Counted from the stretch's first letter, positions 1 to 16,400 are shown. The stretch: 64,000 bases of DNA from Spirochaetaceae bacterium (GCA_051531975.1 JAOPTT010000002.1:153968-217967), one strand, 5' to 3'. The notes: generated by a model not told the origin, from the sequence alone. Numbers and translations are program-made.

Positions 1-2098
1 AATAACTTTTACACTTGTAAATATTTTTGTATTTACAATGGTTATAACATTAAATATTTATACATCTGGTAAAAAGATGCGACAAAATTTAGATAATCAA
101 CTGCAAGGAACAACAAACCTAGTATGTACTTTAATTGAGAGTACAGTTGATAATTTAGCTTACAGTTATTTGGCAGGATCAGGTAAAGCCACATTAAATA
201 CTTTAAGATCAGTTTATAATGACTTATCAAAAAAACAGAATCAAGAAACAGATATTAAAAAATCTTTACTCAATGTTATTAAAAAGATAGAAGTTGGCGA
301 AAATGGAATTGCATATATAACAGATCTCCATGGAAATATTATTTACCACCCGAAACAGGATAAAATTGGAACAAAAACAGCACAGAGTCAATGGATTATA
401 AATAATAGAGGTGAACAATTAGCCCTAACAAAATATGACAATAACGGTATAGATAGTATAATGATTAAGGTATTCTTTAATGATTATAACTGGCAAGTTT
501 TAATAACTGCTCCAATGGCAGATTTTACTGGACTTGTTAATATGAAGTTATTAAAAAAGGATATATTAAGTATTAAAATTGGAGAGTCAGGCTACCCTAT
601 AATATTAGATACAAATGGAAAAATAATGATTCATCCAACTGCTATAGGTGTAAACATAGACTCTTTAAAAGATGCTGATGGAAATCTTTTTTTAGAAGGT
701 GTTTATAAAAAACAAGAACCGGGATCTGTTAACTATAATTGGGAAGAAAAAAGTGGTGAAATTAGACAAAAATTCGCATACTACTCTAAAATACCACTAA
801 CCGGTTGGACCCTATTAACAACAGGTTATTGGGAAGATTTTACTAAAGATACAAAAGCTATACAGTTTAATCTAATTATCTCAGCAATAATTGCCATGAT
901 AATAAATACTATTGCAGTTTTAATAATTAGTGGAATTATTACAGGTTCTCTTAATAAATTATCAATAAGTCTAAAAGAGATTTCAGAGGGAGATGGAGAC
1001 TTAACCCGCCAGGTTAATGTTAATTCCAAAGATGAACTTGGTGCAATAGCCCAGGATTTTAATATATTTATTAAAAAACTTAGAGATATGATGATAAAAA
1101 TTAAAGCTTCAACTAACGACACCCTTGTTGTAAAAGACGAACTTACAACTGGAACAGCCGAAACTACTGCAGCTTTAACACAAATATCCCAGAACATGAC
1201 ACATATAGATCAAAAGATTTTAGAGTTAAATAACAATATGAACGTTTCTCATCATGAAATTGTTGAAATAACAACAAACATTAACGATTTAGATGGTTAT
1301 ATAGATTCACAAACCGCAATGATTGAGGAATCAACTGCAGCAATTACCCAGATGATCACCTCTATAGATAGTGTATCTCAGATAACTCAAAAAAAGAAAA
1401 AATCAGCAGAGAACCTTGTAAAAACAGCAAAAGAAGGTGGTGATATTGTTGATACTACCCATGAATCAGTATTATTAGTAAGCCAAGAACTTGAGAGTAT
1501 TAACGAAATGGCTACAGTTATATCCGATATAGCATCTAGTACTAATCTATTGGCGATGAATGCTGCAATTGAGGCTGCCCATGCAGGGGATGCAGGAAAA
1601 GGATTTGCAGTTGTTGCAGACGAGATTAGAAAATTAGCAGAGTCATCAAGCGAAAGTTCTAATAGGATTCAGGATATCCTTAAAAAGGTAACTATACATA
1701 TTAACGATTCTGCAGAAAAAAGTAAAAAAGCCAGTACAAGTTTTATGGTTATTGATAATGAAATAAACGGTTTAGTTGAAGCTTTTGACGAAGTTTTTAC
1801 TAGTACAGACGAGCTTCAGTTAGGTGGATCTGAGATTCTTGCAGCAGTAACCTCTTTACAGGAGTTATCAGGGACAGTACAACATAACTCAATTACTATT
1901 ACCCAAGCTGTAGAAAAGGTAAGTGTGGTAATGAATACTACAAGAAGTATTACAGAAGAAGTTGTAACAGATATTGGCGAGATAAACAGAGGAACTAAAG
2001 ATATCTCAAGCTCTATGAACAGTGTTTCCCAAAGTACACAGTTAATTTCAAAAGCTGGTGAATCATTAAATACTAATGTAAATAAGTTTAAAACTTAA
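1..2098 (+). CDS. Methyl-accepting chemotaxis protein (Cache sensor, HAMP, signalling domain); probably 5'-truncated by the window edge
   Basis: [34 protein letters not shown] signalling motif; HAMP GDGDLT...DELG; Cache-like [11 protein letters not shown]. The frame is open from base 2 ([12 protein letters not shown], hydrophobic) to the ATG at 38, so the true start is probably upstream. Confidence 0.93.
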
Positions 2099-4337
2099 AA
2101 GCTTCAACCTCTTTACTTAACTGGTTCATGTTATTTAGATTCTCACTGTTTATCTCTTCGATGGTAAACTGGGAATCTTTTATTATTCCTGCCTCTTTAT
2201 CAAGTGTATTAAACTCTAGGATATTCTTCTCTGCTACACTCTTCATAGGAGCCATCTGATTGTTTATATTTGAAATATGATCTACTACATCATGGGCACT
2301 TTCAGACAGGTTAATTGATATATCTCTAAGCCTTGTCATGGAATCTACAATTTCATTTGCCCCAACTTTTAACTCGTCTGAACTATTTACAATCTCATTA
2401 AAAGCCTGGATAAAATTATTAACTTCACCTGATATAGTATCGAATCTTTTAGTCATTGTTTTGCTTGATTCCTGAAGTCTGTTTATCTGATCAGATATTG
2501 ATTCTATTGATGAAGTTATACTATTAGAGTTAGCAGAAGTATTTTCTGCTAGTTTTCGGATCTCATCTGCAACAACAGAGAACCCTTTTCCAGCATCTCC
2601 AGCATGGGCAGCCTCAATAGCAGCATTCATTGCTAATAAGTTTGTATTAGATGCAATTTCGTTAATAATTACAGTTAATTCCGAAATACTATCAATACTT
2701 CCAGTAATTCCATTTATCTGCTCTGTCATATTTTCCATTTCGGAAATACCTTCATTAGTACTACTTGATAATGTTGCAGAAGCTGCTTTTTTATCATTGG
2801 CTATTCTAGCTACATTATCTATAGATGCTGACATCTGCTCTGTGGCTGCCGAAACCTCTGTAACTGAAGATGACTGTTCCACAATTACTTCTTGCTGAGT
2901 CTCTATTAACCCATTTATGCTTTCTATAGAAACTGATGTCTCTGTTACTTGGCTTATTAGGTGTTCCATATCATCTTTTATTTCTGCAAGAGAATTAGTC
3001 ATCTGACCAACATTATGCACAGATTCATCTACACCTTTTTTAGAACTAACAGCTAGGTCGTTACCTTTTAATACAAGACTATTAATTGAATTAAATATAT
3101 TTTTTATATTAACAACTAACTTATCATTTATCTCTTTTGTTAATAAAGAGACTTCACTTAATATAGAGTCATTTGTTGAGTTAATAGTAAAATCTCCAGT
3201 GGCTAGTTGCTCTACATCTTTAACTAATTTATGTATTGGTTTTGATACTATTCTTGATATAAAAAATGATAAAAACAGACCTATAATGGATATAACTAAC
3301 ATGTTTATATAGAAGTTTCTATTAAGTTTAATAAGGGGTTGTAATATTTCATCTTCACTTACAGATACACCAACAACCCATTTTCTACTTTCTAAATAGT
3401 TTGATACCGATACATATTTTTCAGATTCACCATCTTCATCTTTAATATAGGAGTGGTGAATTATATCCCAATCTGAATTATCAATTGACATCAATACCAT
3501 GTTTTTATATATAAATTCATCTTGGCTATTTTTTATATCAAATAACTTATCTCCACCTTCATTACCATCGGAATAGATAATGTCTCCAGTTGTGGAATAG
3601 ATAAATACATGTCCAGTTTTTCCAATTTTATATTCACCCATTTTTGCATTAATTCCAACAATAAAGTCGATCTCTTTTATACCAACAAAAAATACTCCAA
3701 TTATGTTTCCATCACTATCTTTAAAGGGTTTATATGCTGTTAAATACCAACCGTTAACAACATAAGCTCTACCAAAAAATGTTTCCCCACTCATTACAGT
3801 TTTATATACCGGGGAACTAGTAGGAATATAGGTATCAACAGCTCTGTTACCATCTAGTTTTTGAACATTTGTAGAAATACGTAATAAACCGTCGGGAATG
3901 ACTTGGAAAAGAGTAGTTGATAAGTTAAAAAGATCTAATATTCCATCGACATCAGGGTAGTAGTGATACTGATTTACTCCATTTAATTCCATAGTAGGAA
4001 GCAGTATATTTTTCTTTTTTTTATCAACCTGATTTATTATATCAACATTTAATAGTTGTTCTGAGTTTATATTAATAATTTTATCAGAAAAAAAGATATC
4101 AGAAGCAACCTTTACATCTGATGTAACTTTTTTCTGAGCAATATTAAAGGTATTACCAATTAACGATGTTACGAGGTTTAGACTATTTTCTAAGTCCTGA
4201 TCAACTTTATCAACAAATATTTCCTGCATTGGTCTTAATATAAATGTTGTTACACTTATTATAGGTAAAGCTATTAGAATTATTGAAAAAATGATTATAA
4301 TTGGACCTATCCCTATTTTTTTGTTTCTCATGATCAA
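2088..4337 (-). CDS. Methyl-accepting chemotaxis protein (Cache_3/Cache_2-type sensor)
   Basis: LLRISTNV...[16 protein letters not shown]ache motif, two TM segments, [17 protein letters not shown] signalling domain. Confidence 0.93.
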
Positions 4338-12558: not shown

Positions 12559-12587
12559 TTGACAAATCCAATATAAAAAGTGATAGT
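12559..12587 (+). promoter_or_regulatory. Promoter of the nrdR-nrdD operon
   Basis: TTGACA-17 bp-GATAGT. Confidence 0.55.
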
Positions 12588-12601: not shown

Positions 12602-12617
12602 ACACTACATGTAGTGT
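12602..12617 (+). promoter_or_regulatory. NrdR box
   Basis: Perfect palindrome ACACTACATGTAGTGT matching the NrdR consensus acaCwAtATaTwGtgt, directly upstream of nrdR. Confidence 0.85.
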
Positions 12618-13106: not shown

Positions 13107-15200
13107 TTGGGAAGTATTGATTGGAATGAAATTTTAGGGGACAAAAAATTAACTATACCTAAAACTGGTATAAAAAAAATTATTAGACGTGATGGTACTA
13201 TTGATACCTATAAACCTGAAAAAATTGCGAATGCCATATCTAAAGCAATTGAAGCTGTACGGGGAGTTAACGACCCAGAATTAGATAAAAGATTAACTAC
13301 ATTAACCGAGGCTAAATTAGAGGAATTTCAACTTACAAGACATCCAAACTCAATACCTGCTATCGAAGAGATTCAAGACCTTGTTGAGACAGCTTTAATT
13401 GAAGCTAAAGAGGTAGATATTGCAAAAGCATATATACTTTATAGATCTAGACATGAAGCTATAAGAGATCGAGATAAATTACTTTTAGACATAGATGAAA
13501 CTATGGACGGTTACCTATCCCAATCAGATTGGAGAGTTAATGAAAATGCCAACGTAAATTTTTCATTAGGTGGCCTAATTTTACATAACTCAGGAACAAT
13601 AACAGCAAACTACTGGCTAAAAAATATATATACAAAAGATATATCCGAAGCACATAAATCAGGGGCGTTTCATATTCATGATCTTTCCATGTTCTCAGGT
13701 TATTGTGCTGGTTGGTCACTAAGACAACTAATAAAAGATGGTCTTGGTGGAGTTTCAGAAAAAATAACTTCTAAACCTGCAACTCATTTATCTACTTTAA
13801 TGTTTCAAATTGTAAACTTTTTAGGAATCATGCAAAACGAGTGGGCTGGAGCTCAGGCTCTTTCTAGTTTTGATACATTCTTAGCACCATTTGTAAGGGC
13901 TGATAAATTATCTTATAAAGAGGTAAAACAGGCAGTACAAAGCTTTATTTTTGGTGTAAATACTCCTTCTAGATGGGGAAGCCAAGCACCATTTACAAAT
14001 ATTACATTAGACTGGGTCTGCCCTAAAGATCAAATTGGAAAACCAGCTGTAGTTGGTGGTAAAGAACAAGACTTTACATACGACGATTGTACTAAAGAGA
14101 TGGAGATGGTTAACAAAGCATTTCTAGAACTTATGTTACAAGGTGATGCAAACGGTCGTGGTTTTGCATACCCTATTCCAACATATAATATTACCCCTGA
14201 TTTTGATTGGGATACAGAAAATGCAAAGATACTTTTTGAGATCACTGCAAAGTACGGTACTCCATACTTTCAAAACTTTGTTAACAGCGATCTGAATCCA
14301 GAAGATGTAAGATCTATGTGTTGTAGATTACAACTTGATAAACGTGAATTAAGAAAACGTGGTGGTGGACTATTTGGAAGTGATGAATTAACAGGTTCAA
14401 TTGGAGTTGTAACGATTAATCTGCCTAGAATTGGTTATTTAAGTAATACAAAAGAGGAATTCTACCAAAACTTAGGCCATATGATGGATTTAGCTGCAAC
14501 TTCTCTGGTTTTAAAACGTAAAGTTGTTAACAAAATGATGGAAAATGGTCTGTTTCCTTATACAAGAAAGTACTTAAAAAACATGAATAATCACTTCTCT
14601 ACTATTGGTTTAGTTGGTATGAATGAGTGTCTTAGAAACTATAAGTCCCTTGATCTAACATCAAAAGAGGGCCAGGATACTGCCAATGAGATTTTAATTT
14701 TCATGAGAGATAGATTAGCAGATTATCAGGAGAAAACTGGAGACCTTTACAACCTTGAAGCGACACCAGCGGAAAGTACAAGTTATAGACTTGCTAAACA
14801 TGATAAAAAATATTACCCAAATATAATTACTGCTGGAGAAAATGATCCATATTATACAAACTCAACACAACTTCCAGTAGATTTTACAAGAGACATCTTT
14901 GAAGCATTAGATCTACAGGATGCACTACAAACAAAATATACAGGTGGTACAGTTTTCCACGGTATGTTAGGAGAGGCTATAAAGGATTGGAAAGCGTGCA
15001 GAAAGCTTGTTAAAACGATTTCTGCTAACTACAGGTTACCATTCTTCTCAATTTCGCCGATATTCTCTATATGTAGTGTTCATGGTTACTTAGCGGGAGC
15101 ACATGATAACTGCCCAAAATGCAAAGATGAGGAAGCAGCAAAAATAAAGAAACAGATTGACGAGCTTAAACAACAAAAAATTACAAATGGAGAGAGTTAA
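13107..15200 (+). CDS. nrdD: Anaerobic (class III) ribonucleoside-triphosphate reductase, catalytic part lacking the glycyl-radical segment
   Basis: ATP cone, HIHDL, GYCAGWS, RSMCCRL finger loop, NLEATPAES, YTGGTVFH, CSVHGY...CPKC; no RxxGY motif before the stop; TTG start with AGGAG. Confidence 0.95.
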   Translation: MGSIDWNEILGDKKLTIPKTGIKKIIRRDGTIDTYKPEKIANAISKAIEAVRGVNDPELDKRLTTLTEAKLEEFQLTRHPNSIPAIEEIQDLVETALIEAKEVDIAKAYILYRSRHEAIRDRDKLLLDIDETMDGYLSQSDWRVNENANVNFSLGGLILHNSGTITANYWLKNIYTKDISEAHKSGAFHIHDLSMFSGYCAGWSLRQLIKDGLGGVSEKITSKPATHLSTLMFQIVNFLGIMQNEWAGAQALSSFDTFLAPFVRADKLSYKEVKQAVQSFIFGVNTPSRWGSQAPFTNITLDWVCPKDQIGKPAVVGGKEQDFTYDDCTKEMEMVNKAFLELMLQGDANGRGFAYPIPTYNITPDFDWDTENAKILFEITAKYGTPYFQNFVNSDLNPEDVRSMCCRLQLDKRELRKRGGGLFGSDELTGSIGVVTINLPRIGYLSNTKEEFYQNLGHMMDLAATSLVLKRKVVNKMMENGLFPYTRKYLKNMNNHFSTIGLVGMNECLRNYKSLDLTSKEGQDTANEILIFMRDRLADYQEKTGDLYNLEATPAESTSYRLAKHDKKYYPNIITAGENDPYYTNSTQLPVDFTRDIFEALDLQDALQTKYTGGTVFHGMLGEAIKDWKACRKLVKTISANYRLPFFSISPIFSICSVHGYLAGAHDNCPKCKDEEAAKIKKQIDELKQQKITNGES

Positions 15201-15201
15201 A

Positions 15202-15726
15202 ATGATTCAGACAAAAAGTAAAGTAGACGACAAGATTGAAGCTTTAGAGCAACAATTATTAACAGTGAAAGGTAGAGAAACTGAGAAGTATGCCAGAATA
15301 GTTGGCTACTACAGAGCTGTAAAAAATTGGAACAAAGGAAAAGCTGAAGAGTATAAATTTAGAGTAAGCTTTAGTGAAAAATCTTTTGAAAGATCCATAA
15401 ATGGTTCTGTCGAATCTAAAACTGAAACTCAAAAAACTGAATCTTTTAAAAACATTGCTCAGGCTGTTGGAGAGGTAGATAGCTATATGTTTTTTTATAG
15501 AACTACATGCCCTAACTGTCCTCCTGTAAAAGCAGTAATTAAAAACTTAATCTTAGCAGGTGAGAGTATTAATGCTGATAGTGCAAAAGGTTTTACTAAA
15601 GCTGCTATACATGAAATCTTTACTGCTCCAACTGTTGTACTTCTAGATAATAATAAAAAAGAGATCACTAGAACTTCTAATGTAACTGATCTTAAAATAC
15701 TACTAAAAGAACTAAATATTAATTAA
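15202..15726 (+). CDS. Stand-alone NrdD glycyl-radical domain fused to a thioredoxin/glutaredoxin-like domain
   Basis: TEKYARIVGYYRAVKNWNKGKAEEY is the NrdD C-terminal motif; C-terminal FFYRTTCPNCP...TAPTVV; own SD GGAGAG (15189-15194) and ATG 1 nt after the nrdD stop. Confidence 0.9.
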   Translation: MIQTKSKVDDKIEALEQQLLTVKGRETEKYARIVGYYRAVKNWNKGKAEEYKFRVSFSEKSFERSINGSVESKTETQKTESFKNIAQAVGEVDSYMFFYRTTCPNCPPVKAVIKNLILAGESINADSAKGFTKAAIHEIFTAPTVVLLDNNKKEITRTSNVTDLKILLKELNIN

Positions 15727-16400
15727 TGAAGATAAAATTAGGAGGGTTTATTCCAACGACCCTCTTAGACTACCCAGGGGAAATAGCATCTGTTCTATTT
15801 CTCCCTGGCTGTAATCTTAAATGCCCATACTGCCACAACCCATCTATAGTTAATCCACTAAATGATACATTAGACAATATTGATATAATTTTAGAAGCGA
15901 TTGATAAAAGAAAACATCTTATTAGTGGAGTTGTAATATCCGGTGGAGAACCAACCTTATACCAAGATTTAAATGAGTATATTACATACTTTCAGAACCT
16001 TGGATTAAAAGTAAAGTTAGATACAAATGGAACAAACCCAGATCTGCTTAAAAAATTAAAACCAAATTATATTGCCATGGATCTTAAAACCAGCTTAGAG
16101 AAGTATGTTGCTATCGGATATAAGGGTAGTTCAGAAATAAAAGAGAGTTTAGACTGGATTAAAAATAGTGGTATAGACTATGAAATAAGAACAACTGCAG
16201 CACCTATTATTTTTACTAAGGATGACCTAAAACAGATGTTACCACTTTTAAAAGATGTGAAGAATTATTATATTACTAATTTTAGAAATTCTGAGACCTT
16301 GGTGCCAGCGTATAATCTTAATACACCATATAGTGATTATGAGTTAGAAGAGTTTGTGAAAATCTGTAAGGATGCAGGAATTAACTGCACCCTTAGATAA
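15726..16400 (+). CDS. nrdG: Anaerobic RNR activating enzyme (radical SAM)
   Basis: TLLDYPG, GCNLKCPYCHN, SGGEPT, KLDTNG; TAATG overlap with the previous gene. Confidence 0.95.
   Translation: MKIKLGGFIPTTLLDYPGEIASVLFLPGCNLKCPYCHNPSIVNPLNDTLDNIDIILEAIDKRKHLISGVVISGGEPTLYQDLNEYITYFQNLGLKVKLDTNGTNPDLLKKLKPNYIAMDLKTSLEKYVAIGYKGSSEIKESLDWIKNSGIDYEIRTTAAPIIFTKDDLKQMLPLLKDVKNYYITNFRNSETLVPAYNLNTPYSDYELEEFVKICKDAGINCTLR

Follow-up and report, generated by a model that had tools for sequence, protein, structure and literature searches.

Glycyl-radical enzymes are taught as single chains that carry the radical glycine near the C-terminus. Among the class III ribonucleotide reductases (RNRs), the NrdD proteins of Thermotoga maritima (PDB 4COI/4U3E) and Neisseria bacilliformis combine a catalytic barrel, a finger loop with two cysteines, a glutamate, a zinc site and a glycine-loop sequence, and have NrdG as partner. 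In these one-chain enzymes the zinc site and, after it, the glycine loop belong to a single polypeptide; T. maritima NrdD has 41 residues past its CPVC motif. The same parts occur in a marine spirochaete (Spirochaetaceae bacterium, GCA_051531975.1 JAOPTT010000002.1:153968-217967), of which a stretch of 64,000 nucleotides (nt), here called the window, was analysed. Its open reading frame (ORF) listing and sequence give four co-directional genes, nrdR, nrdD, a small gene and nrdG. In contrast to the T. maritima enzyme, this reductase has its glycine loop on another protein, to which a redoxin is joined, and the break is lengthened by about 46 helical residues.

A 2026 review (PMC13450708) knows of spare-part proteins for formate lyases alone and treats their existence for other glycyl-radical enzymes as undetermined; PMC8683613 speculates likewise on spare parts beyond formate lyases. 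In the open full-text literature, subscription-only papers and RNRdb being outside reach, no description was found of a class III RNR with its glycine loop on a separate subunit. The split arrangement is widespread and may have been noticed before; we could not find it described.

We consider it likely that the nrdR-nrdD-small-nrdG operon encodes a two-polypeptide class III RNR that is docked through helices, bears its radical on G35 of the small subunit and uses a tethered redoxin as reductant. The NrdD core would supply the ATP-cone, the catalytic barrel, the MCCR finger loop and the zinc site, and the 174-amino acid (aa) subunit would supply the glycyl-radical loop with G35. Docking would occur at two places: strand 27-31 of the small subunit would be added to the zinc-ribbon strand 652-656 of NrdD, and its N-terminal helix would lie antiparallel to the C-terminal tail helix of NrdD, a pair found only in split forms. 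NrdG would then place the radical on G35, and the loop would occupy the barrel just as it does when the enzyme is one chain. Once a turnover is complete, the CPNC domain, held on a flexible linker of about 35 residues, would re-reduce the active-site disulfide and would itself be reduced by thioredoxin reductase or another donor.

A reductase divided between two genes

NrdD residues 146-677 match positions 1-532 of the 562 positions of the NRDD profile (PF13597; 576.9 bits, cut-off 26.2). The chain also passes the NCBIfam models NF006126 (1066.7 bits, cut-off 548) and TIGR02487 (483.5 bits, cut-off 326.35) and aligns to T. maritima NrdD (4COI) at 9.6e-35. On the first barrel strand, C200 is the conserved cysteine of the core. 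E551, within NLEATPAE, is invariant and aligns with E495 of the T. maritima enzyme (NIEQVPAE); we take its position to be that of the proposed proton source of thiol-dependent class III RNRs. This assumption fits the description in PMC9669993. The RxxGY motif is absent from the NrdD chain, which stops at profile position 532 of 562, and is present in the holoenzyme pair. A first-pass annotation of this DNA had described just such a 697-aa NrdD, with ATP-cone, barrel, finger loop and zinc site and without a radical motif, and all the motifs that it quoted are in place (Table 1).

The missing segment, which the same annotation had placed in the next gene ahead of a CPNC redoxin, was indeed located there. 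Residues 26-57 of the small protein match NRDD positions 532-562 (28.2 bits, cut-off 26.2), so that the two genes meet exactly at one profile position. A whole-genome profile search gave the same division of NRDD between core and small protein, with the radical part in a single copy. The radical segment quoted in the annotation, TEKYARIVGYYRAVKNWNKGKAEEY (abbreviated TEKYARIVGYYR...), was confirmed in the small protein. In the structure model of the small subunit, residues 30-33 and 36-39 form a beta hairpin with G35 at its tip. Across a set of 21 loci, made up of the window and 20 further extracted loci, E28, Y30, R32, I33, V34, G35, Y36, Y37, R38, N42, W43, N44, G46 and K47 are invariant. 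The family match is to the NRDD tail only, PF01228 (Gly_radical) being unmatched in the small protein at E<=0.1.

Beyond the linker lies a compact domain with a predicted local distance difference test score (pLDDT) of 89-95 per 10-residue block over residues 91-170 and the order beta-alpha-beta-alpha-beta-beta-alpha. A fold search of the small subunit against the PDB gave 138 matches at E<=0.001, with thioredoxins at the top, and C103, P104, C106 and P143 are invariant in the 21 small subunits. The Pfam redoxin matches of the window's protein fall under their cut-offs (Thioredoxin_2, 15.5 bits against 27). As for the redoxin subtype, relatives are labelled PF00462, PF13098 or PF13192, the fold search favours thioredoxins, and about 80 aa is the size of a glutaredoxin or NrdH.

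Conservation of the split

Relatives of the small protein number 612, with lengths of 95-305 aa, and are variously annotated as hypothetical, as glutaredoxin or as 'anaerobic ribonucleoside-triphosphate reductase'. The NRDD tail is present in all 120 that were listed, and the organism names attached to them are without exception spirochaetal. The small gene is present in 29 of 41 related genomes, as an open frame of 162-249 aa wherever the whole query was matched. On the other side of the break, all 24 full-length rows of close NrdD orthologues (the window's included) are frames of 696-746 aa whose alignment ends at or before query residue 697.

At the 21 extracted loci, NrdD always ends 23-34 residues past CPxC, and the small gene starts between -8 and +42 nt from the nrdD stop, with ATG in 20 cases and a TTG picked in one. 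A GGAG-like purine-rich stretch stands just ahead of the chosen start in most of the junctions of the 20 relatives, but not in that of the locus with the TTG start (L031).

A scan with one genome per species extends this picture, since at least 590 of its 600 matched stretches encode a relative of the small protein. The 80 loci kept are all spirochaete records, among them the cultured Treponema berlinense ATCC BAA-909 and T. pectinovorum ATCC 33768. Seventy-five are split, none is fused, and five lack upstream DNA. In the split loci the three frame relations occur 31, 23 and 21 times and the nrdD stop is TAA in 52, TGA in 19 and TAG in four. Taken over the spirochaete loci recovered with both genes, the split falls at the same point in 96 of 96, and the intergenic gaps, estimated with starts chosen by rule, run from -41 to +346 nt, most being below 160 nt. 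The conservation of the split with all three frames and all three stops excludes sequencing error, pseudogene and recoding.

The two genes can also be far apart. In G055, a member of genus g23 (complete genomes of about 2.8 Mb), a loop-less nrdD lies at C1:712268-713863 and the gene for the radical part at C1:1315639-1315731, about 600 kb away. This radical part (L121) consists of helix and loop without a redoxin and adjoins nrdG.

The first-pass annotation had called for a search for a conserved split point and had regarded fused intact orthologues in all close relatives as fatal to its two-subunit claim. The 75 split and zero fused loci among the 80, together with the 21 extracted ones, answer both points. 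Conserved split, unlinked genes in one genus, docking helices confined to split forms and the co-fold described below give that claim strong support.

Proposed docking helices and predicted complex

The extra residues at the break of split forms make up one amphipathic heptad helix on each side, and fused relatives are without them. In 50 of the 51 one-chain relatives with a recognised motif, the glycine motif lies 8 or 10 residues past the last CxxC, against a gap from zinc site to glycine of about 56 residues in the window, summed over both proteins. Among 89 distinct pairs, positions +11, +15 and +18 of the NrdD tail, counted from the first Cys of CPxC, are I, L, V, M or F in 98%, and position +25 is hydrophobic in 79%. 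The partner helix shows the same regularity, positions -34, -31, -27, -24, -20 and -17 of the small protein being 79-100% hydrophobic at a spacing of three to four residues.

A co-fold of NrdD residues 125-697 with the small subunit, a check that the first-pass annotation had proposed, reached a score of 0.80, and the best of three controls scored 0.00. Of 157 solved complexes 116 attain the mark applied, as do two of 215 mismatched pairs; these benchmark counts hold only roughly here because own alignments were used. Three runs agreed in at least 70% of contacts, with a partner pLDDT of at least 72 and 159-170 confident contacts. In the model, strand 27-31 of the small subunit pairs with the zinc-ribbon strand 652-656 of NrdD, and its loop 32-37 is placed next to the barrel. 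Residues 672-694 of NrdD contact residues 5-25 of the small subunit in antiparallel fashion (672 near 25, 680 near 15, 684 near 15), with an i, i+3/4 pattern. The redoxin domain received no confident placement, and none of its residues belongs to the confident interface. The helix pair cannot have been carried over from solved one-chain structures, given that the chain of T. maritima NrdD ends 41 residues past CPVC.

Radical parts in other genomes, prophages and phages

When 201 genomes of the phylum were searched with a profile, 107 gave matches, which form four groups. About 29 genomes have the full helix-loop-redoxin type, all five genomes of genus g23 have helix and loop without redoxin, and many genomes of other classes match in the loop only, within open frames of 50-100 aa. 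In the fourth group the match lies inside frames of 710-850 aa, which are one-chain enzymes. Eighteen loci of this search were fetched for context. In ten, nrdD (MCCRL, about 700-720 aa) is followed by a mini gene of 50-66 aa and then by nrdG, and in three a radical-part gene and a gene for a radical S-adenosylmethionine (SAM) protein are found without adjacent nrdD. The remaining five are extra copies of 52-85 aa away from any RNR gene (L125 and L127 in G199, L128 and L129 in G182, L131 in G175). Whole-genome searches gave core to radical-part counts of 1:3 in G199, 1:3 in G182 and 1:2 in G175. Four of the five extra copies stand amid prophage-like genes (RecE-like, RusA-like, anti-restriction, Mu B-like and Mu Gam-like).

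Short radical parts also occur elsewhere. A separate search among proteins yielded 79 mini-proteins with lengths of 43-106 aa, a number of which bear the NCBI name Patescibacteria. A metagenome scan with P0210 gave five loci, of which three were examined; two are fused and one is split (L119), its contig reading nrdR-nrdD-62 aa-nrdG, where the 62-aa protein is the radical part. In the ESM Atlas, Bacillota-dominated clusters of 133-142 aa proteins combine an NRDD tail with a glutaredoxin (scores 0.88-0.89; one of 460 members). By these cluster labels alone, a similar split may exist in Bacillota.

Among the best 80 viral-contig loci, 36 are one-chain NrdD and 33 are a mini gene without a truncated nrdD just upstream; six more are a mini gene beside a truncated nrdD, four could not be judged and one lacks the motif. 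Five of the 33 records were searched whole, and all five contain NRDD profile positions 526-562 only and no core. Two of them, L162 and L148, are complete genomes with terminal repeats (99.7 kb and 81.4 kb); their radical-part proteins have 64 and 67 aa. NrdG2 was not found in any of the five, so the phage part would need both the core and the activase of its host. The complete phage L162 encodes a 64-aa protein of helix and radical loop that shares 48% identity with the window's small protein along 56 residues (3e-17), and a thioredoxin gene follows directly (3150-3419; PF00085, 30.2 bits, cut-off 23.5), overlapping the end of the radical-part gene. These phage modules correspond to those of the window's fusion in unfused form; the phage thioredoxin and the window's redoxin domain share no significant similarity (E 0.54). 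Separately, the viral contigs L180, L210 and L217 contain ORFs of 81-100 aa with a CxxC...CxxC zinc ribbon followed by a glycine loop, which suggests a different break point, before the zinc site and not after it.

It is quite possible that the small subunit is made to detach and be replaced, as a class III counterpart of GrcA/YfiD. NrdG might activate it away from the core, it might be swapped after oxygen cleavage at the glycine, or a phage might supply it. The genomes with several radical-part genes per core favour this, as do the prophage-like surroundings of four of the extra copies, the 33 viral loci, the complete phages with the radical part only, and the phage protein so close to the window's with a thioredoxin gene behind it. 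A radical part without a core works only with another genome's core, which gives indirect support to an exchangeable module within the family. At the window itself the signs differ: its genome has one copy, the small gene is translationally coupled to nrdD and nrdG, which suggests 1:1 synthesis, and a large interface is predicted. Most copies in phages and prophages are moreover of the helix-less mini type, unlike the window's, and the nesting of one-chain proteins (P0121 and P0122, below) within the split clade makes fusion or fission seem tolerated. The exchangeable module proposed in the first-pass annotation thus finds its backing among relatives of the window's enzyme and none in the window's own genome. 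More broadly, and tentatively, the radical of class III RNRs in spirochaetes and probably other phyla could be a detachable protein cofactor, on a subunit that is activated by itself and plugs into a core lacking the loop; in the window's type a dedicated coiled coil would dock it and it would bring its own reductant. The extra copies would be spare or alternative parts, and phages, with no more than a radical part of 50-70 aa and sometimes a thioredoxin, would take over the host core for the supply of deoxyribonucleoside triphosphates.

Fused relatives and the origin of the break

One-chain NrdD-redoxin proteins exist: P0121 (849 aa), P0122 (885 aa, with 131 member sequences) and P0125, P0128 and P0131 (about 855 aa). 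A quick FastTree tree, midpoint rooted, was built from 72 of 177 rows, after removal of fragments, of rows in which no zinc site was recognised and of 12 of the 21 close orthologues. The spirochaete split clade, within which P0121 and P0122 are nested, has a support of 0.996 (inner nodes 0.85 and 0.63). Helical tails also mark a second clade (0.91), which joins other one-chain redoxin forms (0.933). Deep nodes are weak (0.20-0.66), and no order of fusion and fission events is claimed. By the sequences compared, fission or re-fusion probably occurred more than once, and P0121 and P0122 may be secondary re-fusions in which the two helices were deleted together with the stop codon and the Shine-Dalgarno sequence. 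As a hint only, from metagenome gene calls, about 56 of 156 close NrdD representatives end at most 50 residues past the zinc site without a glycine loop; several of these end 0-3 residues past it and may be cut or interrupted by inteins.

Many close NrdD relatives (within P0144-P0292) are 1000-1900 aa long and match in two to five stretches, and two of these long proteins bear the intein domains PF14528 and PF14890. This group of NrdD proteins therefore looks like a hot spot for inteins.

The break might also be neutral. On this account, which we regard as possible though somewhat doubtful, a one-chain NrdD-redoxin came apart between zinc ribbon and glycine loop, and the helices, acquired later, hold the pieces together without conferring any new ability. 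The close relationship of fused and split forms fits, as does the translational coupling of the genes in the window. Splits near the same point also recur, as helix-bearing forms with and without redoxin, as the helix-less mini type and as zinc ribbon plus loop in viral contigs. Against neutrality stand the retention of the split throughout one entire class of spirochaetes, with no fused locus among the 80, and the phages with the radical part only, which make sense only if the part works in trans with another genome's core.

The tethered redoxin

The finger loop of the window's core has two adjacent cysteines (C405-C406), which, like the active-site Glu, are features of the thiol-dependent, 'NrdD2'-like type. 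Its motif is MCCR and not SCCR, the form of N. bacilliformis, in which no Met precedes the cysteines and which marks thioredoxin as the only reductant. Double-cysteine loops are associated with disulfide chemistry reduced by thioredoxin, and the Glu is proposed to be essential for formate-independent reduction (PMC9669993). According to the same paper, MCCR enzymes, which make up 83% of double-cysteine class III sequences, retain the formate requirements and could use formate or thioredoxin, their reductant being unsettled. Because the core combines the MCCR loop with the active-site Glu, the tethered redoxin is probably the reductant, and from the sequence it is a plausible turnover reductant. 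One-chain relatives (P0121, P0122 and others) share the C-terminal CPNC domain, and the genome encodes a thioredoxin reductase (403.9 bits, cut-off 343.45).

Alternatively, the redoxin could have a protective or repair role at the radical site or the zinc site, or could gate docking or activation by redox state. We think this unlikely, although several observations agree with it: no redoxin residue enters the confident co-fold interface, related radical subunits exist without a redoxin, and the MCCR loop keeps the Met of formate chemistry (PMC9669993). Set against these, spirochaetes, one-chain relatives and a phage all have a redoxin beside or fused to the radical part. In the 21 small subunits neither the CxxC nor the conserved Pro varies, and the core has both the second finger-loop Cys and the Glu.

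Other RNRs are encoded in the same genome. A second class III RNR (L034, G000:C8, 1486-3750, minus strand) is a one-chain protein of 754 aa with MGCR and RITGY motifs; it has no Glu at the aligned position and has its own 190-aa NrdG (966-1538, minus strand). With two PF02867 (class I/II) genes on contig C6, the genome has four RNR catalytic genes in total.

Several points weigh against a helix-docked, redoxin-served enzyme with its radical on G35. The gene structure, its conservation, the fold and the predicted docking are observed, and from them we infer the activity, the radical site, what the redoxin does and where its electrons come from. Reduction by formate is also conceivable, the MCCR loop having kept its Met (PMC9669993). 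Genus g23 and many other spirochaete lineages have redoxin-less radical subunits, so the split design can do without the redoxin. The one-chain NrdD and the two class I/II genes mean that the split enzyme is not the sole RNR of its genome. Finally, the co-fold may pass in part by likeness to solved one-chain NrdD, where the strand and loop contacts occur inside a single chain, the helix pair alone being new.

Gene layout and features of the window

The small gene is in frame +1 relative to nrdD, and the ATG of nrdG shares one base with the TAA of the small gene. As the first-pass annotation had stated, the small gene has its own Shine-Dalgarno sequence and ATG and is followed by nrdG, which the NCBIfam match (TIGR02495) bears out; a nearby gene for a cognate NrdG is a feature of class III RNRs.

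A DNA contig from a public run spans the junction (14451-15256) with no differing letter, no gap and a depth of 36.6; the run may be the sample behind the window's assembly, and the contig is therefore not independent. It shows no indel that would fuse the ORFs, the kind of finding that the annotation had named as damaging. RNA-library contigs of the same sample, in which DNA carry-over is possible, lie on nrdD and across the junction of the small gene and nrdG (15528-15850). They leave 15180-15447 uncovered and are uninformative on one versus two transcripts and on relative expression. That an indel, a decayed gene, a programmed frameshift or read-through lets one chain be made, for which only the 1-nt distance between the window's two frames speaks, is so improbable that it can be set aside, given a split conserved with all frames, all stops and widely varying gaps, genes unlinked in G055, residues conserved on both sides of the break and a bridging contig, though from the same sample, that leaves the junction unchanged.

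Upstream of nrdR, a promoter-like site and a palindrome were noted. The promoter-like site is weak by itself, as the scan of the region gave 16 sites against 20.0 expected from shuffles; a terminator scan of the region likewise gave no excess over shuffles. The palindrome ACACTACATGTAGTGT resembles an NrdR box. If it is one, its sequence and position would mean autoregulation of the whole nrdR-nrdD-small-nrdG operon.

Table 1. Features of the split reductase locus (window coordinates) and, in the last two rows, radical-part genes of complete phage genomes (coordinates of their own records).
Feature	Position	Strand	Basis or remark
Promoter-like site (TTGACA, 17 nt, GATAGT)	12559..12587	+	Upstream of nrdR; consensus match only, 10/12 letters
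Perfect 16-nt palindrome ACACTACATGTAGTGT	12602..12617	.	2 nt ahead of nrdR start, downstream of promoter-like site
nrdR, RNR operon repressor, 154 aa	12620..13084	+	Zn_ribbon_NrdR and ATP-cone; TIGR00244, 185.6 bits (cut-off 124.65)
nrdD, core subunit, 697 aa	13107..15200	+	TTG start, TAA stop at 15198-15200; NRDD profile 1-532 of 562
ATP-cone, NrdD residues 24-117	13176..13457	+	PF03477, 68.5 bits
Finger loop M404-C405-C406-R407, double-cysteine type	14316..14327	+	SMCCRL; invariant in 21/21 orthologues
Zinc site C656, H659, C669, C672 (CSVH...CPKC)	15072..15122	+	Invariant in 21/21
C-terminal amphipathic tail helix, NrdD residues 673-697, proposed docking helix	15123..15197	+	Heptad pattern and co-fold contacts
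Shine-Dalgarno sequence of small gene, GGAGAG	15189..15194	+	Within 3' end of nrdD, 7 nt before ATG
Small subunit gene, 174 aa	15202..15726	+	ATG start; docking helix, glycyl-radical loop, disordered linker, thioredoxin-fold domain
N-terminal amphipathic helix, small-subunit residues 2-20	15205..15261	+	Structure model; heptad positions 79-100% hydrophobic; residues 5-22 antiparallel to NrdD tail in co-fold
Glycyl-radical loop, residues 28-47; G35 at 15304-15306	15283..15342	+	NRDD profile 532-562; motif RIVGYYR
Disordered linker, residues 60-93	15379..15480	+	Length and sequence variable; pLDDT <50 at 68-84 and 86-88
Thioredoxin-fold domain, residues 94-174; CPNC (residues 103-106) at 15508-15519; conserved Pro143	15481..15723	+	Model and fold search
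nrdG, radical-SAM activase, 224 aa	15726..16400	+	TIGR02495 NrdG2, 175.5 bits (cut-off 131.15)
Phage radical-part gene, L162	2959-3153		Radical part only, no core
Phage radical-part gene, L148	2986-3189		Radical part only, no core

Implications and comparison with described systems

If the two-polypeptide reading holds, the radical glycine lies on a second, obligate polypeptide in a large bacterial group, contrary to the single-chain teaching. Should the radical part also prove to be a detachable cofactor, as tentatively suggested above, no earlier spare-part or trans-acting radical subunit would be known outside pyruvate formate-lyase (PFL) among glycyl-radical enzymes. The radical domain must exit the barrel for activation, and a natural two-piece enzyme would allow activation, docking and catalysis to be studied separately. 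The helix pair would offer a ready-made design for splitting glycyl-radical enzymes of the NrdD type, and the redoxin fusion would be gene-level evidence for the use of a thiol redoxin by class III RNRs with an MCCR loop. Stand-alone NrdD radical parts, including the core-less prophage and phage copies, are concrete candidates for the spare-part question put in PMC13450708. For annotation, the small proteins bear labels such as hypothetical or glutaredoxin, and the core can look truncated.

Of the one-chain NrdD-redoxin proteins, P0121 and P0122 resemble the window in core, glycine loop and a CPNC domain after a variable linker. These proteins differ from it in being single chains, with the glycine motif 8-14 residues past CPxC and no helix pair. 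One Glutaredoxin:NrdD case is listed by Rozman Grinberg et al. (2018; PMC6187632), in the available portion of which a split is not mentioned. The same source describes class I RNRs with a redoxin fused to the radical subunit, as in the window, and there the redoxin was shown to be an RNR reductant. Unlike the window's protein, the class I subunit bears a metal-linked radical, the fusion is N-terminal and the disulfide reduced sits in NrdA (PMC6187632).

GrcA/YfiD and Y06I of phage T4, which serve PFL, are like the small subunit stand-alone radical-glycine proteins for a large catalytic body (PMC8683613). They are activated by the cognate radical-SAM enzyme and insert into that body, and phage-encoded versions occur for PFL (PMC8683613) and, in the viral records searched here, for NrdD. 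GrcA differs in belonging to the PF01228 family, in rescuing an oxygen-cleaved full-length enzyme, and in having neither a redoxin nor a coiled-coil dock. The window's core never has a loop of its own, which makes the small protein an obligate subunit, unlike GrcA. The likeness to GrcA drawn in the first-pass annotation therefore stands as a functional analogy between small stand-alone radical-glycine proteins and not as family membership, PF01228 being unmatched.

Other RNRs are known in pieces. The class II enzyme of Pseudomonas aeruginosa, the subject of Crona et al. in 2015, is reportedly split into NrdJa and NrdJb, the products of consecutive genes. In Thermus phage phiYS40 nrdJ is likewise split, so that, as in the window, two genes in a row encode an RNR catalytic chain (PMC3653736). 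These split class II RNRs differ from the window's enzyme in having no glycyl radical and a different break point. Phage nrdD genes occur in pieces through introns, inteins and homing endonucleases in six cases (PMC3653736), which represent mobile elements or recent fragmentation. The window's break differs from these in having no intervening element between its genes, and its small subunit is conserved and adapted.

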